From a virus (lineage: Duplodnaviria > Heunggongvirae > Uroviricota > Caudoviricetes): a DNA stretch of 7,624 nt. Below the pieces are notes generated by a model, which made no database searches, was not told where the DNA came from, and saw nothing but the letters and a program-made list of their open reading frames with translations. Numbering within the stretch: position 1 is the first letter of the stretch; each line of letters opens with the position of its first letter. The DNA lies in the IMG/VR virus record IMGVR_UViG_2671180828_000013; one strand, given 5' to 3'. This document shows, one piece after another, positions 1 through 7,624 of this stretch. A program made the position numbers and the translations under genes.

Positions 1-585
1 TTACGCACCAGCCTTTTTCTGGGTTACATTTAAATGATTAACCTTAGCTTCACATTCTTCATAAATCTCTCTTACAGTATCATCGGGTAACTCTTGTAGA
101 CTCAATGCTAGTGCTCTTTTGACTCCGCTCAATGAGTGCAGTTTTTGAATATCTGTATCAAGCAAAACGGTTAGTAGTTCGGCCCCTTTTCTGATCAATA
201 AGTTGGACAAAATCTCTTGTTCAGATGAAGTTAGCGAGTCCCACGCCCTCATGATGATGGAATCACTATCATCAATTCTTTGTTTTTTTGTTCTTTTTGT
301 TTGTTCAATTGGTTCTTTTTTCATGCTTGGCTCATCACAATAACCATTGACCAGCCACTCCATAGATACATGTTCTCTTTCTGCAATGTTCTGGAGATGG
401 TGCTTTCTTGGTTGTGGTGGCGGCTGATTGTTTCTCCTTTTGTAGTAGTTCTGCAATGTCTGAACGTTTATTCCCCATGCTCTAGCCGCCTCACTTCTCG
501 ATTTGTAACGCTCTGCAAGACGAAAAATCCGTTCGATCACTGGTTCTTTTCCTTCGTCGAGAAAAGAACTGTTTTTCATGTTCAT
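1..585 (-). CDS. Phage CI-type repressor with N-terminal helix-turn-helix domain
   Basis: 194-aa ORF from ATG at 585-583 (second in-frame ATG at 579-577) to TAA at 3-1. AAGGAA Shine-Dalgarno about 9 nt upstream on the minus strand (plus coords 595-600). N-terminal stretch ERIFRLAERYKSRSEAARAWGINVQTLQNYYKRR ... MEWLVNGY fits the HTH pattern of phage CI-type repressors. Divergent to a Ner-like gene as in a Mu-type immunity region. The ORF-track extension to 714 is AT-rich and low-complexity (NNRTNKRTKSR...) and is treated as non-coding leader. Confidence 0.75.
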   Translation of the reverse strand: MNMKNSSFLDEGKEPVIERIFRLAERYKSRSEAARAWGINVQTLQNYYKRRNNQPPPQPRKHHLQNIAEREHVSMEWLVNGYCDEPSMKKEPIEQTKRTKKQRIDDSDSIIMRAWDSLTSSEQEILSNLLIRKGAELLTVLLDTDIQKLHSLSGVKRALALSLQELPDDTVREIYEECEAKVNHLNVTQKKAGA

Positions 586-752
586 GCTCTCAGGTTCCTT
601 TTTATTTATCTTATTGATATTAATAACAAAAACACCGCAAAGAATAAAAAGAACAAAATACCTTGATTTGGTTCTTTTGTTTGTTCTATTATTTACCCGT
701 ACAGATATCCGCACGAATATCCGCGCGGGTAACTTTTTAGAATAGAGGAAGT
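586..752. promoter_or_regulatory. Divergent switch region between repressor and Ner-like genes; expected to hold operators and both promoters
   Basis: 167-bp AT-rich intergenic region between divergently transcribed regulator genes. Contains a tandem direct repeat ATATCCGC (705-712 and 717-724, 12-bp period), a TTATTGATATTAATAA near-palindrome (about 611-626) and a GTTCTTTTGTTTGTTC motif (671-686). Function is inferred from position only. Confidence 0.5.
663..692 (+). promoter_or_regulatory. Candidate sigma70-type early promoter for the Ner-like gene and downstream operon
   Basis: TTGATT (663-668) as -35, 18-bp spacer, TATTAT (687-692) as -10, about 60 bp upstream of the ATG at 753; GAGG ribosome-binding motif at 745-748. 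Hexamer matching by eye only; alternative -10 candidates exist (e.g. TAGAAT at 738-743). Confidence 0.3.
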
Positions 753-1001
753 ATGAGTAGAAGAGAAGTTTCAGATCACGATTGGCCGCCTGAAATCATC
801 AAGGCGCGCTTACACATGGCTGGCTTATCACTGCGCTCTTTATCTTTAAAGGCTGGTTACAGCAGGGATTCGCTGAAAAGCGTATTACGTACTCCTTGCC
901 GACCGTATCAGCAAATAATTGCTGATGCTCTTGGGGTATCGCCTGAAGAAATCTGGCCCAGTCGATACCAGGTTAAGAGCTATATGAGAAAGGCGTCATG
1001 A
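753..1001 (+). CDS. ner: Ner-like DNA-binding transcriptional regulator (Ner/Nlp family)
   Basis: 82-aa ORF. Sequence DWPPEIIKARLHMAGLSLRSLSLKAGYSRDSLKSVLRTPCRPYQQIIADALGVSPEEIWPSRYQ matches the recalled Ner/Nlp pattern (DWH.ADIIAGL ... LS..S...G......L.NAL.R.WPKGE.IIA.AL...P..IWPSRY). TGA stop at 999-1001 is followed 1 nt later by the next ATG. Confidence 0.85.
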   Translation: MSRREVSDHDWPPEIIKARLHMAGLSLRSLSLKAGYSRDSLKSVLRTPCRPYQQIIADALGVSPEEIWPSRYQVKSYMRKAS

Positions 1002-1002
1002 T

Positions 1003-2421
1003 ATGTATGTCATTGCAAAAGAACTGATTGGCGCGCCCGGAATGCCTGCTACAACAAAAGGTATTCGCCAGGCATTACAACGTTACGTACAAGGGAAAAG
1101 CTGTTGTTCCCGTCGTCGCTCAGGCTCTAAAGCAACTGAATACAGCATCGACTGTTTACCTGAAGTGACGCAGCAGGCATTACGTGAACGCTACGCCCTG
1201 CAACTGATGACTCAAAAAGTCGATGAATCACCGGCTCCAGTGGTGACAAAGGCCAGACGCTCGCCTGCCGTGGTTGATGCGGTGGAGGCATATCGCGGAT
1301 CACCACAACTGATGGTCGAACGCCTTAATGCCCTGACTGAAAACCAGCGCCAGGTGGCTGATGCACGAATCGCGATCGTCAGCGAAGTTCTGAAAGTCGC
1401 GCAACAACCTGGTTTCAGCTGTGCGAAGGCTACCGCCCCTTCGGTGGCAGAAGATACGGCAGCTGCGCTGGAGCAGAAAAGCGGCTCAGCAATGAATCAG
1501 CTGTTTAACACACTTTCAGACGGCTGGACGGTGATTTCAGACGGTCTGCATGATGTACAGGCCATGACCGACACCATCAGCGATAAAATTGATGCGCTGG
1601 AGAATGCCGTTTCAGGGATGGGGATTGTGCAGGATATCAGTGCCTTTACGGCCAGTTTTACTGCCCTGAAAGGGAATGCCGCCGCCCTGATTAATGCGCC
1701 CCGTCGCATGGCTGAATCGCTGGCCGGAATGTTTGCCGTGCTGGCGGGGCTGCCCGGCGATCCTTCCCTGTCGCTGACCGGAAAAGCCGGAACGCCGTCC
1801 GGCAGCCTGACCACAAACCGTGACAGCACGACAGAGCAGGCCATGCCGCAGCTGTACCGCACACTTTCTTCCCTGCGTTACACCCTCAGCGAACAGGATG
1901 ATCCGCAGCGCCTGATTGGTCTGACGCCTGCGGCACAGAACAATATCCGTCTGCTGCGGAGCGTCATGCAGAGTGCAGCCCTGGTGTCGCAGGCGCAGAC
2001 GGTCGGAAAACTGCTGGATCAGGTCATCCGGCAGAATACGACGCACGTTCAGGATACTGACCGTGCGGGCGGACTGGCCTGGCTGGAAAGTTCTGCTGAT
2101 GTGCAGCGTATCAACCGGGATTTGAGCGATGTCATGGAACAACAGGTGCTGGATCTGTCCGCACAGGGCCATACCGGCACCGCCCTTACATTACGTGATG
2201 CAGGGCTTGCGCTGACAGAAGATTTAACCACGCGGAGCGTGCATCTTCCCGGTGCTTTTCAGGTCATGGTGCGAACCACCGAACCGGCACTGGTCACGCT
2301 GTACCGTGCCACCGGTAACAGCCGCCGCTGGCAGTATTTTGTCCGCAGAAACAATATCCCCGATCCGGTTTTTGTTCCGGGTGGCCGCCGCGTGGAGGTG
2401 ATCAGTGAGCAGCAGGATTGA
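1003..2421 (+). CDS. Hybrid ORF: MuA-transposase-like N-terminal DNA-binding domain (about the first 150 aa) continuous with a tail protein at the Mu gp43 (N) position (or tape-measure-derived segment); probable deletion-derived in-frame fusion
   Basis: ATG at 1003, TGA at 2419-2421. N-terminus ...APGMPATTKGIRQAL...SGSKATEYSIDCLPEVTQQAL resembles the recalled MuA N-terminus (...LPGLPKTSAGVIYVA...GVKGGKAIEYNANSLPVEAKAAL), and a following ENQRQVADARIAIV stretch resembles the MuA SDSQRRLAEKWLPAV region. No DDE catalytic-core-like sequence follows; the remainder is Ala/Gly/Ser/Thr/Leu-rich like tail/tape-measure proteins. Its 3' end overlaps the hub gene start by 17 nt, the position of the gene preceding the hub in Mu-like tail modules. 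Confidence 0.55.
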   Translation: MYVIAKELIGAPGMPATTKGIRQALQRYVQGKSCCSRRRSGSKATEYSIDCLPEVTQQALRERYALQLMTQKVDESPAPVVTKARRSPAVVDAVEAYRGSPQLMVERLNALTENQRQVADARIAIVSEVLKVAQQPGFSCAKATAPSVAEDTAAALEQKSGSAMNQLFNTLSDGWTVISDGLHDVQAMTDTISDKIDALENAVSGMGIVQDISAFTASFTALKGNAAALINAPRRMAESLAGMFAVLAGLPGDPSLSLTGKAGTPSGSLTTNRDSTTEQAMPQLYRTLSSLRYTLSEQDDPQRLIGLTPAAQNNIRLLRSVMQSAALVSQAQTVGKLLDQVIRQNTTHVQDTDRAGGLAWLESSADVQRINRDLSDVMEQQVLDLSAQGHTGTALTLRDAGLALTEDLTTRSVHLPGAFQVMVRTTEPALVTLYRATGNSRRWQYFVRRNNIPDPVFVPGGRRVEVISEQQD

Positions 2422-3529
2422 ACTGTATATCGGCGGCAGTATTTTTTCCGGCTGGCTGACGGTCAGCGTCCGTCGCTCGCTGGAGCATCTGGCCGGGTCG
2501 TTTGAACTGGGGCTGATGCTGCCCGGTGAGCGCATCCCCTCAGCCCTGCGGACCGGTCAGCCCCTGACGCTCAGAATTAACGGGCAGACGGTCATCAGTG
2601 GCTGGCTGGATCAGGTCAGTCAGCGGATCAGTGCAACCCGTCATCAGATCAGCATCAGCGGTCGGGATAAAACCGGCGACCTGGTGGACTGTGCCGCCAT
2701 CCATCCCGGCAGCCAGTGGCGCAACCGGACGCTGGCACAGATTGCCGCAGATTTATGTGCGCCCTTCGGGATAGCCGTGCGCTGGCAGGTTAACGACGAC
2801 ACGGCTGCACGCCCCTTCAGCTCTTTTACGCTGGAAAACTCAGAAACCGTGGCGGATGCGCTGACCCGTGCTGCCCGGCATCGCGGGGTGCTGGTGACCA
2901 GTAATGCTGACGGCGATCTGGTGTTCACCCAGGCAGGAAGCCAGCAGACGGACAGACTGGTGCTGGGAGATAACCTGCTTGATGCCGATTACAACACGGA
3001 CTGGCGAGGACGATACAGCGAATACCGTGTCCGGGGACACGGGCGCGGTGGTGGCAAACGGGGAGACAGCGAATCCGCCGCCCGTCTGGCAGCACCTGTG
3101 GGCGTCATCAGTGATGAGCAGATCGGCCGCTACCGGCCGAAAATCATCCTCGCCGATCAACAGACAGACATCACCGGTGCACGGCAGCGTGCCCTGCGTG
3201 AAATGCGCCGTGCGATTGCCCGTTCAGAACGGTTTTCTGCCACCGTGCGTGGCTGGTTCCGGGATGATGGCCGGTTATGGGATGTCAATCTGCTGACCGG
3301 TGTTTCAGCCCTGCGTTTCGGTATAGAACAGACTGAACTGCTGGTCTGTCAGGTGGAGTTTTTACTTGATGAGCATAACGGGGAAGTCACCCGGCTGGTA
3401 CTGGCACCGCGTGACGGCTTTATCGTTCCGGCAGAGCCGGACAGTAAGGGCCGGGGTGGTTCCGGTGACGATGTTGATGCCTTTATTCGCCAGCAGATGA
3501 AAAAACAGGGGATCAGCTTTGATGAATGA
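2405..3529 (+). CDS. Baseplate hub protein (Mu gp44 / P2 gpD late-control-D family)
   Basis: 374-aa ORF with GTG start at 2405 preceded by GGAGG (2394-2398) at 6-nt spacing; overlaps the upstream ORF by 17 nt. Size and sequence character (IELYIGGSIFSGWLTVSVRRSLEHLAGSFELGL ...) fit the gpD/gp44 family; TGA at 3527-3529. Confidence 0.8.
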   Translation: MSSRIELYIGGSIFSGWLTVSVRRSLEHLAGSFELGLMLPGERIPSALRTGQPLTLRINGQTVISGWLDQVSQRISATRHQISISGRDKTGDLVDCAAIHPGSQWRNRTLAQIAADLCAPFGIAVRWQVNDDTAARPFSSFTLENSETVADALTRAARHRGVLVTSNADGDLVFTQAGSQQTDRLVLGDNLLDADYNTDWRGRYSEYRVRGHGRGGGKRGDSESAARLAAPVGVISDEQIGRYRPKIILADQQTDITGARQRALREMRRAIARSERFSATVRGWFRDDGRLWDVNLLTGVSALRFGIEQTELLVCQVEFLLDEHNGEVTRLVLAPRDGFIVPAEPDSKGRGGSGDDVDAFIRQQMKKQGISFDE

Positions 3530-4133
3530 TGAAGTGTTCAGCCGCCTGATTGCCCCGGTAACGCGCGGTATTCGCCTGTTGTTTGGCCGGGGCGTTCTGA
3601 CCGGCACACATGACGAACTGAAAATGCAGAATGTGCAGCTCACCGGCATGGACGGCGAAACCTTTGATGATGTGGAGCGTCCCCAGCAGTACGGGCAGAT
3701 CAGCGTTCCCCTGCCGGGTGCGGAAACCTTTTTTGCCTGTCTGGGCGGACAGCGGGATCAGACTGTGGTGCTTGTGGTGGAAGACCGGCGCAGCCGCCCG
3801 ACCGGACTCACAGCCGGAGATACGGGGGTGTATCACCATGAGGGGCACCGGATACGGTTAACAAAGGATGGCCGCATTATTGTGACATGCAAAATGCTGG
3901 AGATTTACGCCGACGAGGGGATGCGGGTGGATACGCCGGAAGCCACCTTTACGGGCAATGTGACGGTGGATAAGAACCTGCATGTTAAGGGTAATTTCGC
4001 GCTTGAGGGTACGGGGAAATCTCAGGGACTGTTCACAATGTCGGATGCCGTTATTGCAGGGATACGGTATTCCGGCCATGTGCATCATGATAACGGCGAA
4101 GGCAGTAAGACAGGAGTGCCGGAGAATGGCTGA
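3522..4133 (+). CDS. Baseplate spike / baseplate assembly protein V-like (Mu gp45 family)
   Basis: ATG at 3522 (the ORF track opens at an in-frame TTG at 3519) overlapping the hub gene stop; about 203 aa, consistent with gp45/gpV-type proteins. Position directly after the hub gene. TGA at 4131-4133 overlaps the next start. Confidence 0.75.
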   Translation: MNDEVFSRLIAPVTRGIRLLFGRGVLTGTHDELKMQNVQLTGMDGETFDDVERPQQYGQISVPLPGAETFFACLGGQRDQTVVLVVEDRRSRPTGLTAGDTGVYHHEGHRIRLTKDGRIIVTCKMLEIYADEGMRVDTPEATFTGNVTVDKNLHVKGNFALEGTGKSQGLFTMSDAVIAGIRYSGHVHHDNGEGSKTGVPENG

Positions 4134-4563
4134 TATTGCAATTGTGTGGGATCAGGGATGCGGTTCGCTGCAACTGAACGGTGCCGACCTGCTGACGGAT
4201 GACAGTCTGCTGACGGCCGTTCTGATTTCGCTGTTTACTGACCGCCGGGCGCTGGCATCGGATGAAATCCCTGACGGTACGCGCGACCGCCGGGGATGGT
4301 GGGGAGACAGTTTTCGCCCGCGCCCCATTGGCTCCCGTCTGTGGCTTCTCAGCCGGGAAAAAACGCTGGCCTCGGTGATAAGCCGTGCCCGTGCTTACGC
4401 GGATGAGGCGCTGGGCTGGCTCAGTCAGGATGGCGTGGCGTCATCCGTGGTCTGTCATGCAGAACGTGTGGGACACGCGCGGCTGGCGCTTTCGGTGCGC
4501 ATAACCCTGCCTGATGGTTCAGTGAGGCCCATGATTTTTTATGCTGATCTTAAGGGGGAGTAA
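4126..4563 (+). CDS. GP46 / gp25-like (GPW family) baseplate wedge protein
   Basis: Start chosen at internal ATG 4126 (MADIAIVWDQGCG...), with AGGAG at 4112-4116 and ATGGCTGA overlap with the preceding stop. The upstream part of the 3982 ORF is out-of-frame overlap with the spike gene. 145 aa, typical for this family; TAA at 4561-4563. Confidence 0.8.
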   Translation: MADIAIVWDQGCGSLQLNGADLLTDDSLLTAVLISLFTDRRALASDEIPDGTRDRRGWWGDSFRPRPIGSRLWLLSREKTLASVISRARAYADEALGWLSQDGVASSVVCHAERVGHARLALSVRITLPDGSVRPMIFYADLKGE

Positions 4564-5645
4564 TGCCTTATCAGCCTTTACCGCTGGCACAGTTAATCAC
4601 GCAGACACAGCAGGATATCAGCCAGCGCCTGCCCGGCTCGCAGCCGGGTGTGAATGAAACCACCCTGAATGCCATTGCTTACGCTCAGGCAGGGTTATCT
4701 GCTCAGGAGCATGAGCATCTGGCCTGGATTGCGCGTCAGATCATCCCGACCGAAGCCGATGAAGCCGAACTGCTGAAACACTGTGCATTCTGGGGCGTCA
4801 TGCGTAAGCCTGCCTCTCGGGGGGACGGGCCGGTTCAGCTGATGCTGACCACGGATGCGGGGATCAAGGAAGGTGTGCTTCTCCAGCGAAGTGATGGCGT
4901 GGTTTACCGTATCACCACCTCCCTGACCGGTAAGGCCGGTACGCTGAATGTCAGTGTGGAAGCCGAAAGTGCCGGTCGTGCGGGGAATGCCCCGGCAGGG
5001 ACAAAACTGACATTTATCACACCGCAGGCGGGGATCAACCAGACGGCCACGGTGACCGGAACGGGGATCACCGGTGGTGCGGATGTGGAAACCGTGCCGG
5101 AGCTGCTTTCCCGTCTGGTTTTCCGGGTGCAGAATCCACCGTCCGGCGGCACGCAGTATGATTTTGAACGCTGGGCGCGTGAAGTGCCGGGCGTGACGCG
5201 GGCATGGTGCCGCCCGGAATGGCCGCAGGCGGGCAGCGTGGGGGTAACGTTTGTTCAGGATAATAACCCGGATATTTTCCCCGGTGACGGTGATGTTCAG
5301 CGGGTGGCGGATTATATCCGCAGTCATGATGATCCGGCGACCGGCCAGCCTGTCGGACAGCCTCTGGGGCCGACGGTGACCGTGTTTAAACTGACCAATA
5401 AGCCGGTGCCCTTCAGCATCAGGATCATCCCGAAAACACCGGAGAATCAGGCGGCCGTAAAACAGGCGCTGACCGACCTGTTGTATAACGAATCCCGGCC
5501 CGGCGGTCTGGTTCTGCCGTCGTCTTTCTGGCGGGCGGTGGCAGGGGTGAAAAATCTGGAGGATTTTGAAGTGCGCAGTCCGCTGACGTCAGTTCAGGCG
5601 GGAGACAGTGAGCTGCTGACGGTAGGAGAAATCACATGGCTGTAA
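4563..5645 (+). CDS. Baseplate J-like protein (Mu gp47 family)
   Basis: 360-aa ORF; ATG at 4563 in a TAATG overlap with the previous stop; GGGGGAG Shine-Dalgarno at 4554-4560. Size and position after the gp25-like gene fit baseplate J. Confidence 0.85.
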   Translation: MPYQPLPLAQLITQTQQDISQRLPGSQPGVNETTLNAIAYAQAGLSAQEHEHLAWIARQIIPTEADEAELLKHCAFWGVMRKPASRGDGPVQLMLTTDAGIKEGVLLQRSDGVVYRITTSLTGKAGTLNVSVEAESAGRAGNAPAGTKLTFITPQAGINQTATVTGTGITGGADVETVPELLSRLVFRVQNPPSGGTQYDFERWAREVPGVTRAWCRPEWPQAGSVGVTFVQDNNPDIFPGDGDVQRVADYIRSHDDPATGQPVGQPLGPTVTVFKLTNKPVPFSIRIIPKTPENQAAVKQALTDLLYNESRPGGLVLPSSFWRAVAGVKNLEDFEVRSPLTSVQAGDSELLTVGEITWL

Positions 5646-6196
5646 CCCTGACCCCGCATCAGCGCGCCCTGTTGCAGTTACTGCCTGACGGGCTGGCATG
5701 GGACAAGCGTCCGTCATCCGTACTGGCATCATTATGTCTGGGCCTCAGTCATTCGACAGCGCGTGTATCCTGGACGGGTAAACAGCTGCTTGCCGAGCGT
5801 TTCCCTGACACGTCGCGCCTGCTGCTGGAAGACTGGGAGCGTTATCTCGGGCTTCCCGAGTGTGATATGGCCGGAGCCACCCTCACGGAGCGACAGCGTT
5901 ATGCCGGAAATAAATACCGGATGAAGCCCTCGCTGAACCGTGAATTTTATATCCGGTTTGCGGCGGAGTTTGGTTATCAGATTGACATTCAGCCCTCACC
6001 GGATTCGCAGTGGGTCAGTATTGTCACGATTAACAGTGAAACCGGCTACCGGAATATGAATGTGCTGGATGATATTCTCACGCCGCTGCGTATTTATGAA
6101 GGCGGTGCGCTGGAATGTATTCTGAACCGTTATAAGCCTGCATGGCAGACGTTTATTTACGTTTATGCAAACAGCCATGAAGAGGAGACTATTTAA
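5636..6196 (+). CDS. Mu gp48-like baseplate/tail protein (YmfQ / DUF2313 family)
   Basis: 186-aa ORF; ATG at 5636 overlapping the baseplate J stop (TAA 5643-5645); AGGAG at 5624-5628. N-terminus [26 protein letters not shown] and the size fit the gp48/YmfQ family that follows baseplate J in Mu-like modules. Confidence 0.8.
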
Positions 6197-7077
6197 TGTT
6201 TCATGTTGATAATAATTCCGGCGTGGCGAATATGCCTGCGCTGGCACCGGCGCAGAGTAATACCACAACCTGGTTTACCGAAGGTGACGGACAAAAAGGT
6301 ATCAGCTGGATTGGTCAGGACTGGCTGAATATTCTCCAGGCCGAACTGCTGAATATTCTGGCTGAAGCCAGTATTCAGCCGGATAAGGCGCAGTTAAACC
6401 AGCTTACGCTGTCCATTAAAGCCATTATCGCTGCGAATGCCTTTTCCCGGAAAAATAACCTGAAAGAAATTGCTGATGCCGGTGCGGAGGCCCAGCGTCT
6501 GGCCCGTGGTTATCTTGGTCTGGGGACGCTTGCCACAAAAAACAGTCTTGGTCCCGGTGACGTTAATGCCCTGGCGAAGGATCAGAATCTCGCCGACCTG
6601 GAGAATAAGGGAACCGCCCGTAATAATCTGGATGTTTACAGCAAAAGCGAAGGTGATAACCGTTACCTGCGCAGGGAGCAGAACGGCGCAGACATTCCGG
6701 ATAAAGGGGCTTTTATCGATAACGTCGGTTTACGGGAAACGGTAAACAGGGCGGCGAATGCCCTGCCATCGGACGGCACCGCCGTTGCCGCGAACAGGCT
6801 GGCAAATGCCCACACAATTAATGGTGTTCCCTTTGACGGGACGCAGGATATCACTATCTCATCAGGAACAGTAACCGCCATAAGACTGGGGTCGGTGACC
6901 GCACATATGCCCGGAACATGGGAAAGCTGGGATCTGAATCTGGGGGGCGGCAATGTTCTTACCGGAATTAAAGTACAGGATGTCGGTAAGAATACGGCAG
7001 ATAACGTCGGCGGCGTGTATTACCGGCCGTTGCAGTATCTGTTAAATGGAGCATGGGTGACGGCTGCAAGTATATAA
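6196..7077 (+). CDS. Tail fibre protein (Mu S-like: constant N-terminal part plus a short variable C-terminal part)
   Basis: 293-aa ORF; ATG at 6196 in a TAATG overlap; GAGGAG at 6183-6188. N-terminus [33 protein letters not shown]...[16 protein letters not shown] resembles conserved tail fibre N-terminal domains. Contains a gix-like site at codons about 173-181. TAA at 7075-7077. Confidence 0.8.
6713..6738. other. gix/hix-like crossover site for a Gin/Hin/Pin/Cin-family serine DNA invertase
   Basis: TTATCGATAACGTCGGTTTACGGGAA matches the recalled Mu gix sequence TTATCCAAAACCTCGGTTTACAGGAA at 22 of 26 positions (13 of 14 in the right half). It lies about 175 codons into the tail fibre gene, where the constant/variable boundary sits in Mu S. 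A convergent tail fibre assembly gene follows downstream. Confidence 0.55.
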
Positions 7078-7085
7078 TGATATTC

Positions 7086-7105
7086 AGAAGGCCTTCCGGC
7101 CTTCT
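7086..7105 (+). terminator. Hairpin terminator between convergent tail fibre and tail fibre assembly genes
   Basis: Perfect 8-bp inverted repeat AGAAGGCC (7086-7093) / GGCCTTCT (7098-7105) with TTCC loop, followed by TTATT on the plus strand. Sits in the 31-bp gap between the stops at 7077 and 7109. Confidence 0.6.
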
Positions 7106-7108
7106 TTA

Positions 7109-7624
7109 TTACTGTGGCTGCTCAGGCCATTTAATGGCGTTAAATTCAGCTTCTGTTTTAATGGCGGGTAGTTCCATTTTCTTCACCTGACTGATGTATG
7201 CCATCCATTGGGTAAGTGCTGCTCTGTCTTCATCGCTGATGGTGCCCAGTTGTAGCTCCGTTCTCCAGTCATTAATTTTTTCATATGCCTGATTAAGATA
7301 TGACTGGCGCATTGCTTCCAGTTTTCTTGCGTAGTTAACCGGAATACGGGAGATTATGCCATTATCAAACTTCCAGTTTCCTGAAATATCCGTGCCTTCA
7401 GGGAGTTCATCGACCTCAACCACAGAAAACCCCGCAGGATACAGCGCCGAGGCGTCCTGTGATATTGAGCAGATAACGCCGCTGTCAGGTGTTATGCAAA
7501 GTTTATATTTTTTGGTGAATAATGGCAGGGATTCGTAGAAATCCTTACCATCTTCACTCTGGAAATACTGAACATTATTACCATATGGCATATTTTCAGG
7601 ATAATAACGGGTTATATTTTTTAG
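7109..7624 (-). CDS. Tail fibre assembly protein (Mu U / U'-type chaperone), 5'-partial at the window edge
   Basis: Stop TAA at 7111-7109 (minus). C-terminus LGTISDEDRAALTQWMAYISQVKK ... KWPEQPQ is the classic tail fibre assembly motif, and YFQSEDGKDFYE ... GVICSI ... SGNWKFDNGI matches recalled Mu U features. The minus-strand frame stays open from the in-window ATG (7591-7589) to the window end (LKNITRYYPEN upstream), so the true start probably lies just beyond 7624. Confidence 0.8.
   Translation of the reverse strand, partial: LKNITRYYPENMPYGNNVQYFQSEDGKDFYESLPLFTKKYKLCITPDSGVICSISQDASALYPAGFSVVEVDELPEGTDISGNWKFDNGIISRIPVNYARKLEAMRQSYLNQAYEKINDWRTELQLGTISDEDRAALTQWMAYISQVKKMELPAIKTEAEFNAIKWPEQPQ

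Follow-up and report, generated by a model that had tools for sequence, protein, structure and literature searches.

We analysed a 7,624-nucleotide (nt) stretch of DNA, hereafter the window, which corresponds to positions 8174-15797 of a short-read draft Escherichia coli contig (CDQN01000133.1, GCA_000938575.1; 15.8 kb). The window is what remains of a Mu-like E. coli prophage, and we were mainly concerned with one open reading frame (ORF) in it, at 1003..2421, which encodes 472 amino acids (aa) and joins the start of the transposase gene A to the end of the tail gene N (gp43). This ORF is most likely a fusion pseudogene, neither a transposase nor a complete tail protein. It is probably a by-product of prophage decay, formed when a Mu-like prophage of the Sp18/AF39 type lost 25,626 bp in one illegitimate recombination. 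The recombination would have used a 2-nt microhomology (TA) to join codon 143 of A to codon 124 of N, and would have removed all the functions needed for transposing, killing, lysing and building heads and tails. The resulting fusion most likely has no selected function. Its parts are the following:

1003..2421 (+): fusion ORF A'(1-143)::N'(124-452), 472 aa, ATG start (ORF list, Pfam, PHROG, PDB 9ki1, BLASTP)
1003..1431 (+): A-derived part, aa 1-143, 100% identical to residues 1-143 of the A protein of E. coli AF39; PF02316
1431..1432 (+): deletion junction (three-way alignment and ungapped comparison)
1432..2421 (+): N-derived part, aa 144-472, equal to N 124-452; linker and helix-rich/LysM C-terminal domain (PDB 9ki1 match)

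A 25.6-kb deletion joins A to N

In E. coli AF39 (NZ_OZ547136.1), a single prophage of ~39 kb matches window positions 1-1435 at 99.8% and positions 1431-7624 at 99.9% (megablast). There, a 696-aa transposase directly follows ner and a 452-aa 'DNA circularization protein' directly precedes gp44; the A and N halves of the fusion are 25,626 bp apart in AF39 coordinates. The interval between them carries, in this order, B (AAA ATPase), Kil, Mor, lysozyme, LysC, terminase, portal, head protease, major head protein, sheath, tube, tail chaperone and tape measure. An earlier note, made from the window alone, had proposed a single large deletion, with loss of the transposase core, B, lysis and head genes as well as sheath, tube and tape measure, that left A' fused to the gene in the gp43/N position, and the 25,626 bp missing relative to AF39 bear this out. 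The AF39 annotation also places a 'tRNA-OTHER' feature (L001:10585-10664) within this interval, between the minor head protein and virion morphogenesis genes.

The junction lies at nt 1431/1432, where A codon 143 is joined in frame to N codon 124, and the sequence across it is GTGCGAAGGCTACCGCCCCTTCGG. Alignment to the intact prophage thus puts it close to the region, near nt 1440-1500, where the earlier note had expected it. Inspection of the junction for microhomology, which the note had also called for, gave the 2 nt TA. The parental sequences at the breakpoint are ...GCGAAGGC-TA-TCCGG in A and ...GTGACGA-TA-CCGCCCC in N; TA is the only shared run, and CCG also matches after a 1-nt slip. 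No significant secondary structure was detected at either breakpoint, with DNA folding z-scores of -0.46 and -0.82.

We considered whether the 472-aa protein could be a natural full-length gene of intact phages. This was rejected, since intact relatives encode A (696 aa) and N (452 aa) as separate proteins and not this full-length protein, so that a deletion is implied, as had been anticipated.

The window and AF39 differ at merely 7 of 7,624 nt, which indicates that the deletion is recent. Five of these 7 differences are nonsynonymous. The fusion ORF has two private substitutions, V377 and T396, both of them nonsynonymous and in the N' part, and the repressor shows one nonsynonymous difference from AF39, C126G. 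There is no sign of purifying selection in the remnant, although the numbers are small. The remnant occupies a different chromosomal site than the AF39 prophage.

The A'::N' allele is rare. In a set of 5,426 complete E. coli genomes, window segments 1-1435 and 1431-7624 always matched separately and a junction-spanning match was observed in none (0/5,426). The tape measure and the full N were present in 32 of the 38 complete genomes carrying this N allele. Only two protein clusters among 5.8 billion covered the full fusion, and an exact 24-mer across the junction was not found in the GTDB representatives, in IMG/VR or in JGI metagenomes. A search of a representative library with N' (190 matches) yielded the usual N-family proteins, with alignments beginning at residues ~121-140, and revealed no further type of fusion, while a search with A' alone returned mostly partial proteins at contig ends.

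Domains kept and lost in the fusion

BLASTP against AF39 resolved the fusion protein into A 1-143 (100% identity) and N 124-452 (99.4%). The assignment of its N-terminus to a Mu-type DNA-binding domain, made earlier from the sequence alone, was confirmed by profile searches. Fusion residues 6-141 match PF02316 (HTH_Tnp_Mu_1) with 28.1 bits, above the gathering cut-off of 23.3, and residues 1-158 match positions 8-144 of the 696 in the PHROG 310 'transposase' profile (E 1.5e-34). A profile built from the N-termini of A proteins matches both MuA I-alpha (1tns, 1.4e-11) and the DNA-binding domain of the Mu c repressor (1g4d, 6.7e-9), over the first ~60 residues only. In the AlphaFold (AF2) model of the fusion, with a mean pLDDT of 42, only aa 1-70 are usable (pLDDT 70-84), and their predicted helix-strand pattern is consistent with a winged helix.

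The winged-helix I-alpha domain (~aa 1-65) is complete in the fusion. In the A-derived part it is followed by a linker and then by the next conserved domain, of which the first ~45 residues are left before the cut at A143. The corresponding conserved block, which starts at residue 95 (EAYRGSPQL...), runs past residue 143 in intact A proteins, with invariant A143, I144 and V148; the second DNA-binding domain is therefore cut in the fusion. Thus, the proposal that roughly 150 N-terminal residues form an enhancer/operator-binding domain holds for the first ~65-70, the remainder being linker and truncated next domain. PDB sequence and profile searches of this truncated domain for similarity to MuA I-beta returned nothing beyond I-alpha, its mapping being by conservation only. 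The alignments suggest that the complete end-binding region (I-beta/I-gamma equivalents) is not in the fusion.

As the earlier note had pointed out, no DDE core follows the N-terminal part. Pfam searches of the fusion gave no match to the DDE core or to Mu-transpos_C, both of which were found in intact A (696 aa), with PF09299 at 1.5e-17, weak rve matches and matches to Rous sarcoma virus (RSV) integrase at aa 329-593.

The other half of the fusion is N. Residues 143-469 match positions 125-411 of the 411 in the PHROG 184 profile (E 3.5e-57), and residues 141-469 align with residues 140-495 of the phage Mu 'DNA circularization protein N' (PDB 9ki1, E 4.7e-30). The fusion stop and the gp44 start overlap by 17 nt, the same N/P arrangement as in the intact relative, in agreement with the uninterrupted run into a tail protein overlapping the baseplate hub gene that had been described before. 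Intact N carries PF07157 (DNA_circ_N) at aa 9-94 (1.1e-24); the fusion, which begins at N residue 124, about at the loop, has no match to PF07157. Cryo-electron microscopy has shown gp43 to be a hexameric tube initiator, with a tube-like barrel at its N-terminus, then a flexible loop, and a helix-rich domain with a LysM module contacting the wedges (PMC11915804). By analogy with this structure, the hexameric tube-initiating ring would not be able to form without the barrel of N (PMC11915804).

With no DDE core, no remainder of the end-binding region and no N barrel, the fusion protein is unable to transpose DNA or to start a tail tube. Judging from the domains that are left, it could at most bind an enhancer or operator via I-alpha, or dock to the baseplate wedge via N'.

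The same junction in a second immunity context

A protein search identified P0002 (470 aa, 90% identity) as the sole other full-length relative. It is encoded on an ENA metagenome scaffold (scaffold_417) and on a Logan contig, from a sample other than that of the window. At the DNA level this second copy is 99.3% identical to window positions 1171-3132, ungapped, across the identical junction, and the fusion ORF is uninterrupted in both copies.

The identical junction in an unrelated sample shows that the junction is genuine. Since the window derives from a 15.8-kb short-read draft contig that ends in a repeat-prone region, a misjoin of two parts of an intact prophage could have been suspected. 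However, a 2-nt overlap is too small for a graph mis-join, and two further assemblies, from the unrelated sample, show this join with different flanks. The identical junction in that sample led us to reject an assembly artefact, to which we give practically no chance.

Upstream of window position 1171, the second copy shows no alignable similarity to the window. Its immunity module is different, with a 172-aa repressor carrying PF02316 (L004:9040-9558), another ner and other A residues 1-57. The immunity-swap boundary is located at A residue ~57, at the end of the I-alpha domain. A swapped left arm ending inside the 5' end of A is the pattern known for Mu and D108, and the same pattern is seen here. 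The insertion sites differ too: the second copy is inserted in malX and the window copy beside pgm, with both Mu-type left ends directly abutting host genes. No intact prophage was found at the pgm-side or the malX site among complete genomes.

Within A', the two copies show 11 differences, all at 1180-1326, where the window is identical to AF39 and the second copy to intact phages of its own immunity type. Over window positions 1327-2131 all three sequences are identical, so that single-nucleotide polymorphisms (SNPs) cannot tell one origin from two. The conserved A segment is common to several immunity types, and a single origin needs one crossover, left of the junction, in at most 260 nt of A common to both types. 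We favour such a single origin, which would have been followed by recombination in this short stretch of A. To reach the second site, the deletion allele could then have been transferred into another resident prophage, or the element could have moved, assisted by a helper, as a natural mini-Mu.

The second copy is further deleted. After the equivalent of window position 3132, gp44 codon 242/243 is joined to mom codon 79 (L004:12091-12177). This gp44'::mom' deletion, of ~9.4 kb with a 2-nt overlap, is in frame and leaves an element of ~4 kb. The contig carrying the second copy ends 54 nt into mom'.

Other fusion ORFs and clustered endpoints in N

Judging from related sequences, decay in this group of phages commonly produces fusion ORFs. 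P0003 (L006:368-1609) joins tube(1-84) to N(124-452), its junction lying in 8 nt, CGATACCG, that the tube gene has in common with the paralogous end of N's tube-like domain. P0013 (L008:10001-12184), from another phage lineage and at least four samples, joins portal(1-~398) to N' from codon ~121. In the same prophage, located beside fliT/amyA, A'(1-375) reads in frame into a complete Mor (L008:3896-5443), with the A'::Mor junction 5 nt upstream of the Mor ATG. P0019 joins N(1-301) to gp48(55-end), and further deletions in N have other endpoints. These analogous fusions, the nonsynonymous majority among the differences from AF39, the additional deletion in the second copy and the lack of a match to defence families in PADLOC (see below) all support decay.

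Several observations weigh against decay as the whole explanation. One junction is found in two immunity types and at two sites, which is unexpected of a dead-end remnant and needs at least one extra event, a crossover or mobilisation. The right-hand endpoints of A'::N', tube'::N' and portal'::N' all fall within ~12 nt, in N codons 121-124 (window 1420-1440), a cluster that may point to a hotspot, or to selection that keeps the C-terminal domain whole and translated. Both junctions that were found without frame bias (gp44'::mom' and A'::Mor) are in frame, for which the chance is 1/9, and the fusion ORF has stayed intact in both copies. Moreover, the source contig breaks off in the tail-fibre assembly gene and does not contain the right end of the element. 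Apart from the clustered N' endpoints and the junction shared between two contexts, nothing is unusual; these two features, together with the apparent in-frame excess, justify a population-scale follow-up.

If the N site, and perhaps the A site, were a deletion hotspot, the same A-N junction could have arisen twice. The three different fusions ending within ~12 nt in N would fit such a recurrence, as would the identity over 1327-2131, which leaves SNPs silent on the number of origins. On the other hand, the two junctions are nucleotide-identical with only a 2-nt microhomology in a 2.1-kb partner gene, neither breakpoint carries significant secondary structure, tube'::N' is explained by its own 8-nt homology CGATACCG, and other N deletions end elsewhere. 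Two independent nucleotide-identical deletions are far less likely than a single origin, and we regard recurrence as very unlikely.

Alternatively, the element could be a natural mini-Mu, a mobilisable defective element retaining both ends and the enhancer, which Sp18-like helpers replicate, package and re-integrate by supplying A, B and virions in trans, and whose immunity modules reassort with those of the helpers during co-replication. Such mobility would account for the presence of one junction in two immunity types and at two insertion sites, where both copies keep a Mu-type left end, TGTAACCAGG..., abutting different host genes (pgm side and malX) and where complete genomes carry no intact prophage. 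For laboratory units of this kind, L, E and R suffice in cis when A and B are supplied in trans (PMC3145075), and potential helpers exist, since intact, efficiently packaged Sp18-type phages are found in E. coli (PMC2669165). The rarity of the element counts against this, however: it was found in 2 samples and in 0/5,426 complete genomes, and its junction 24-mer was absent from the GTDB representatives, IMG/VR and the JGI metagenomes. Nor is its right end seen in the contig of either copy. The isolate's contig is unbroken through the junction, which makes it less likely that this genome also holds a closely related helper or additional copies, and homologous recombination into another resident prophage fits the data equally well. 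We thus consider a natural mini-Mu unlikely and retain decay of a resident prophage as the preferred explanation.

Gene content and expression of the remnant

The remnant comprises a left end, a repressor gene, ner, the fusion ORF, the gp44-48 baseplate genes and tail-fibre genes. Its left end, TGTAACCAGG..., lies outside the window, at ~L003:7913 in source-contig coordinates, where it directly abuts host DNA; the host genes chiP to pgm are found upstream of the window on the source contig. The c-ner intergenic region is retained in the window. For gp45 to gp48, the AF39 annotation was carried onto the window with an offset of 18,570. The features around the fusion ORF are:

1..585 (-): repressor (c) gene (ORF list; AF39 coding sequence L002:4001-4585, 194 aa); the open frame continues to 714
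586..752 (no strand): c-ner intergenic region, AT-rich; putative operator/enhancer and early promoter, by position
753..1001 (+): ner-type early regulator gene (PF13693 HTH_35, E 2.5e-19), identical to the AF39 gene
2405..3529 (+): gp44/P baseplate hub gene, GTG start at 2405 (PF21683, PF22255, PF21929)
3519..4133 (+): gp45 spike gene (Pfam; AF39 annotation)
4126..4563 (+): gp46 baseplate gene (Pfam; AF39 annotation)
4563..5645 (+): gp47 baseplate gene (Pfam; AF39 annotation)
5636..6196 (+): gp48 baseplate gene (Pfam; AF39 annotation)
6196..7077 (+): tail-fibre gene; the region 6196..7624 (PF02413 Caudo_TAP) starts the invertible host-range region
7109..7624 (-): tail-fibre assembly gene, convergent, cut by the contig end; same region 6196..7624 (PF02413 Caudo_TAP)

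The source contig breaks off at the margin of the invertible host-range segment, 6 nt short of where the inverted tail-fibre assembly gene starts; a recombinase gene lies downstream of the tail-fibre region in the intact AF39 prophage. The contig break is probably due to repeats or inversion heterogeneity, and hides the right end of the element. A G+C-rich palindrome, AGAAGGCCTTCCGGCCTTCT (window 7074-7109), separates the convergent tail-fibre and tail-fibre assembly genes and is probably a bidirectional terminator.

A sharp step in G+C content separates the immunity region (window 1-1000, 38-43%) from A' and the tail genes (1200-6000, 55-65%). Antisense ORFs at 1612-2172 (-, 186 aa) and 4695-5327 (-, 210 aa) are located inside the G+C-rich fusion and gp47 genes, and are most likely composition artefacts. 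A scan of the window against Rfam returned no families, and a repeat scan nothing bearing on the fusion ORF.

The fusion ORF uses the native A start, 1 nt past the ner stop and behind a GAGAAAGG motif. The c-ner intergenic region (G+C 38-43%, compared to 55-63% downstream) contains a promoter-like site at 663-692 (+), TTGATT-18-TATTAT, with 9/12 matches, a consensus match only. The gene order of Mu is the basis on which an operator/enhancer role is inferred for this region (PMC3145075). A terminator scan found no terminator-like site on the + strand between the promoter-like site and gp44, so that early transcription would read through the fusion into the baseplate genes. From this arrangement, expression of the fusion ORF from the early promoter is plausible. 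As the adjacent repressor gene is intact, however, the ORF should be off in a lysogen; transcription from the early promoter, continuing into the baseplate genes, would occur only once this repressor is inactivated.

The two copies differ in the kind of repressor. That of the window gave only weak helix-turn-helix (HTH) matches, with no match to PF02316 and no similarity to the N-terminus of A', whereas the repressor of the second copy shares its winged-helix domain with its own A' (42% identity, E 1e-12).

The earlier note had also raised, as speculation, that the retained DNA-binding domain could bind Mu-type ends or enhancers and so interfere with superinfecting Mu-like phages. Interference through binding of Mu-type ends is unlikely, as the I-beta/I-gamma region is cut at residue 143 or absent. 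Interference with superinfecting phages in general found no support, given that the intact repressor should silence the ORF and is not homologous to the A' N-terminus. The idea should be narrowed to I-alpha/enhancer binding or to baseplate poisoning. In such a form, the ORF would encode a domesticated interference protein, whose I-alpha domain occupies the enhancer/operator of incoming phages or whose barrel-less N' poisons tail assembly. The intact ORF in both copies and the complete I-alpha domain would agree with this, the helix-rich domain of N' is the wedge-contacting part of gp43 (PMC11915804), and the N' endpoints of three independent fusions cluster at a domain boundary. Against it, the fusion, repressor, ner and fibre proteins had no match to PADLOC-DB defence families (E up to 0.01), and the promoter should be shut by the adjacent intact repressor, which already confers immunity. 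In addition, the lack of homology between the window repressor and the A' N-terminus leaves shared operator binding unproven, both private N' substitutions are nonsynonymous, and the allele is extremely rare. A domesticated interference protein therefore seems extremely unlikely.

Mobility and function could also be combined. The A'::N' element would then be a naturally circulating mini-Mu, replicated, packaged and re-integrated by Sp18-like helpers and swapping immunity modules with them. Its ORF and N' (codons 121-124) would be kept in frame for interference with tail assembly or enhancer use of the helper or a competitor, or because expression of the downstream baseplate and fibre genes might require translation through N'. 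We hold this combination to be distinctly doubtful.

With prophage decay as the preferred explanation, the 472-aa ORF is to be annotated as a fusion pseudogene. The remnant provides a clear, well-dated example of the grounding of a transposable prophage, in which the dangerous functions are gone and the immunity module and the baseplate and fibre genes are left. If the shared junction, the retention of N' and the in-frame excess hold true, defective Mu-like elements may be exchanged or mobilised in E. coli more than assumed, or there may be a reason why truncated domains of tail proteins or transposases are kept.

Comparison with known systems

The closest relatives of the remnant are intact Sp18-type prophages, such as that of AF39 and Sp18 of O157 Sakai. 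The AF39 order c, ner, A ... N, gp44-48, tail fibre and invertible region is the same as in the window, at 99.9% identity. In contrast to these prophages, the window has lost the 25,626 bp that separate A codon 143 from N codon 124, and is found at another chromosomal site.

Laboratory mini-Mu and Mud elements likewise carry an internal deletion while retaining the left end together with the regulatory/enhancer region, and need A and B to be provided in trans (PMC3145075). Unlike these constructs, the element described here is natural and derives from a wild Mu-like phage rather than from Mu; it keeps baseplate and fibre genes and creates A'::N', and its right end and mobilisation are putative.

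The first ~60 residues of the fusion belong to the same winged-helix family as MuA I-alpha and the Mu c DNA-binding domain (1tns/1tnt and 1g4d/1qpm; PF02316), but here the domain is attached to a fragment of a tail protein and not to a transposase or to a repressor oligomerisation domain. As in Mu, the repressor of the second copy shares its winged-helix domain with A', whereas the window's repressor is of another kind. Compared to phage Mu gp43 (9ki1), N' keeps the gene position and the 17-nt overlap with gp44, while the PF07157 barrel is replaced in the fusion by transposase sequence.

Finally, P0003, P0013 and P0019 are, like A'::N', in-frame products of large deletions, two of which keep N' from codons 121-124. 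They differ from it in their partners, deletion sizes and lineages, and only the A'::N' junction is found in two immunity types.

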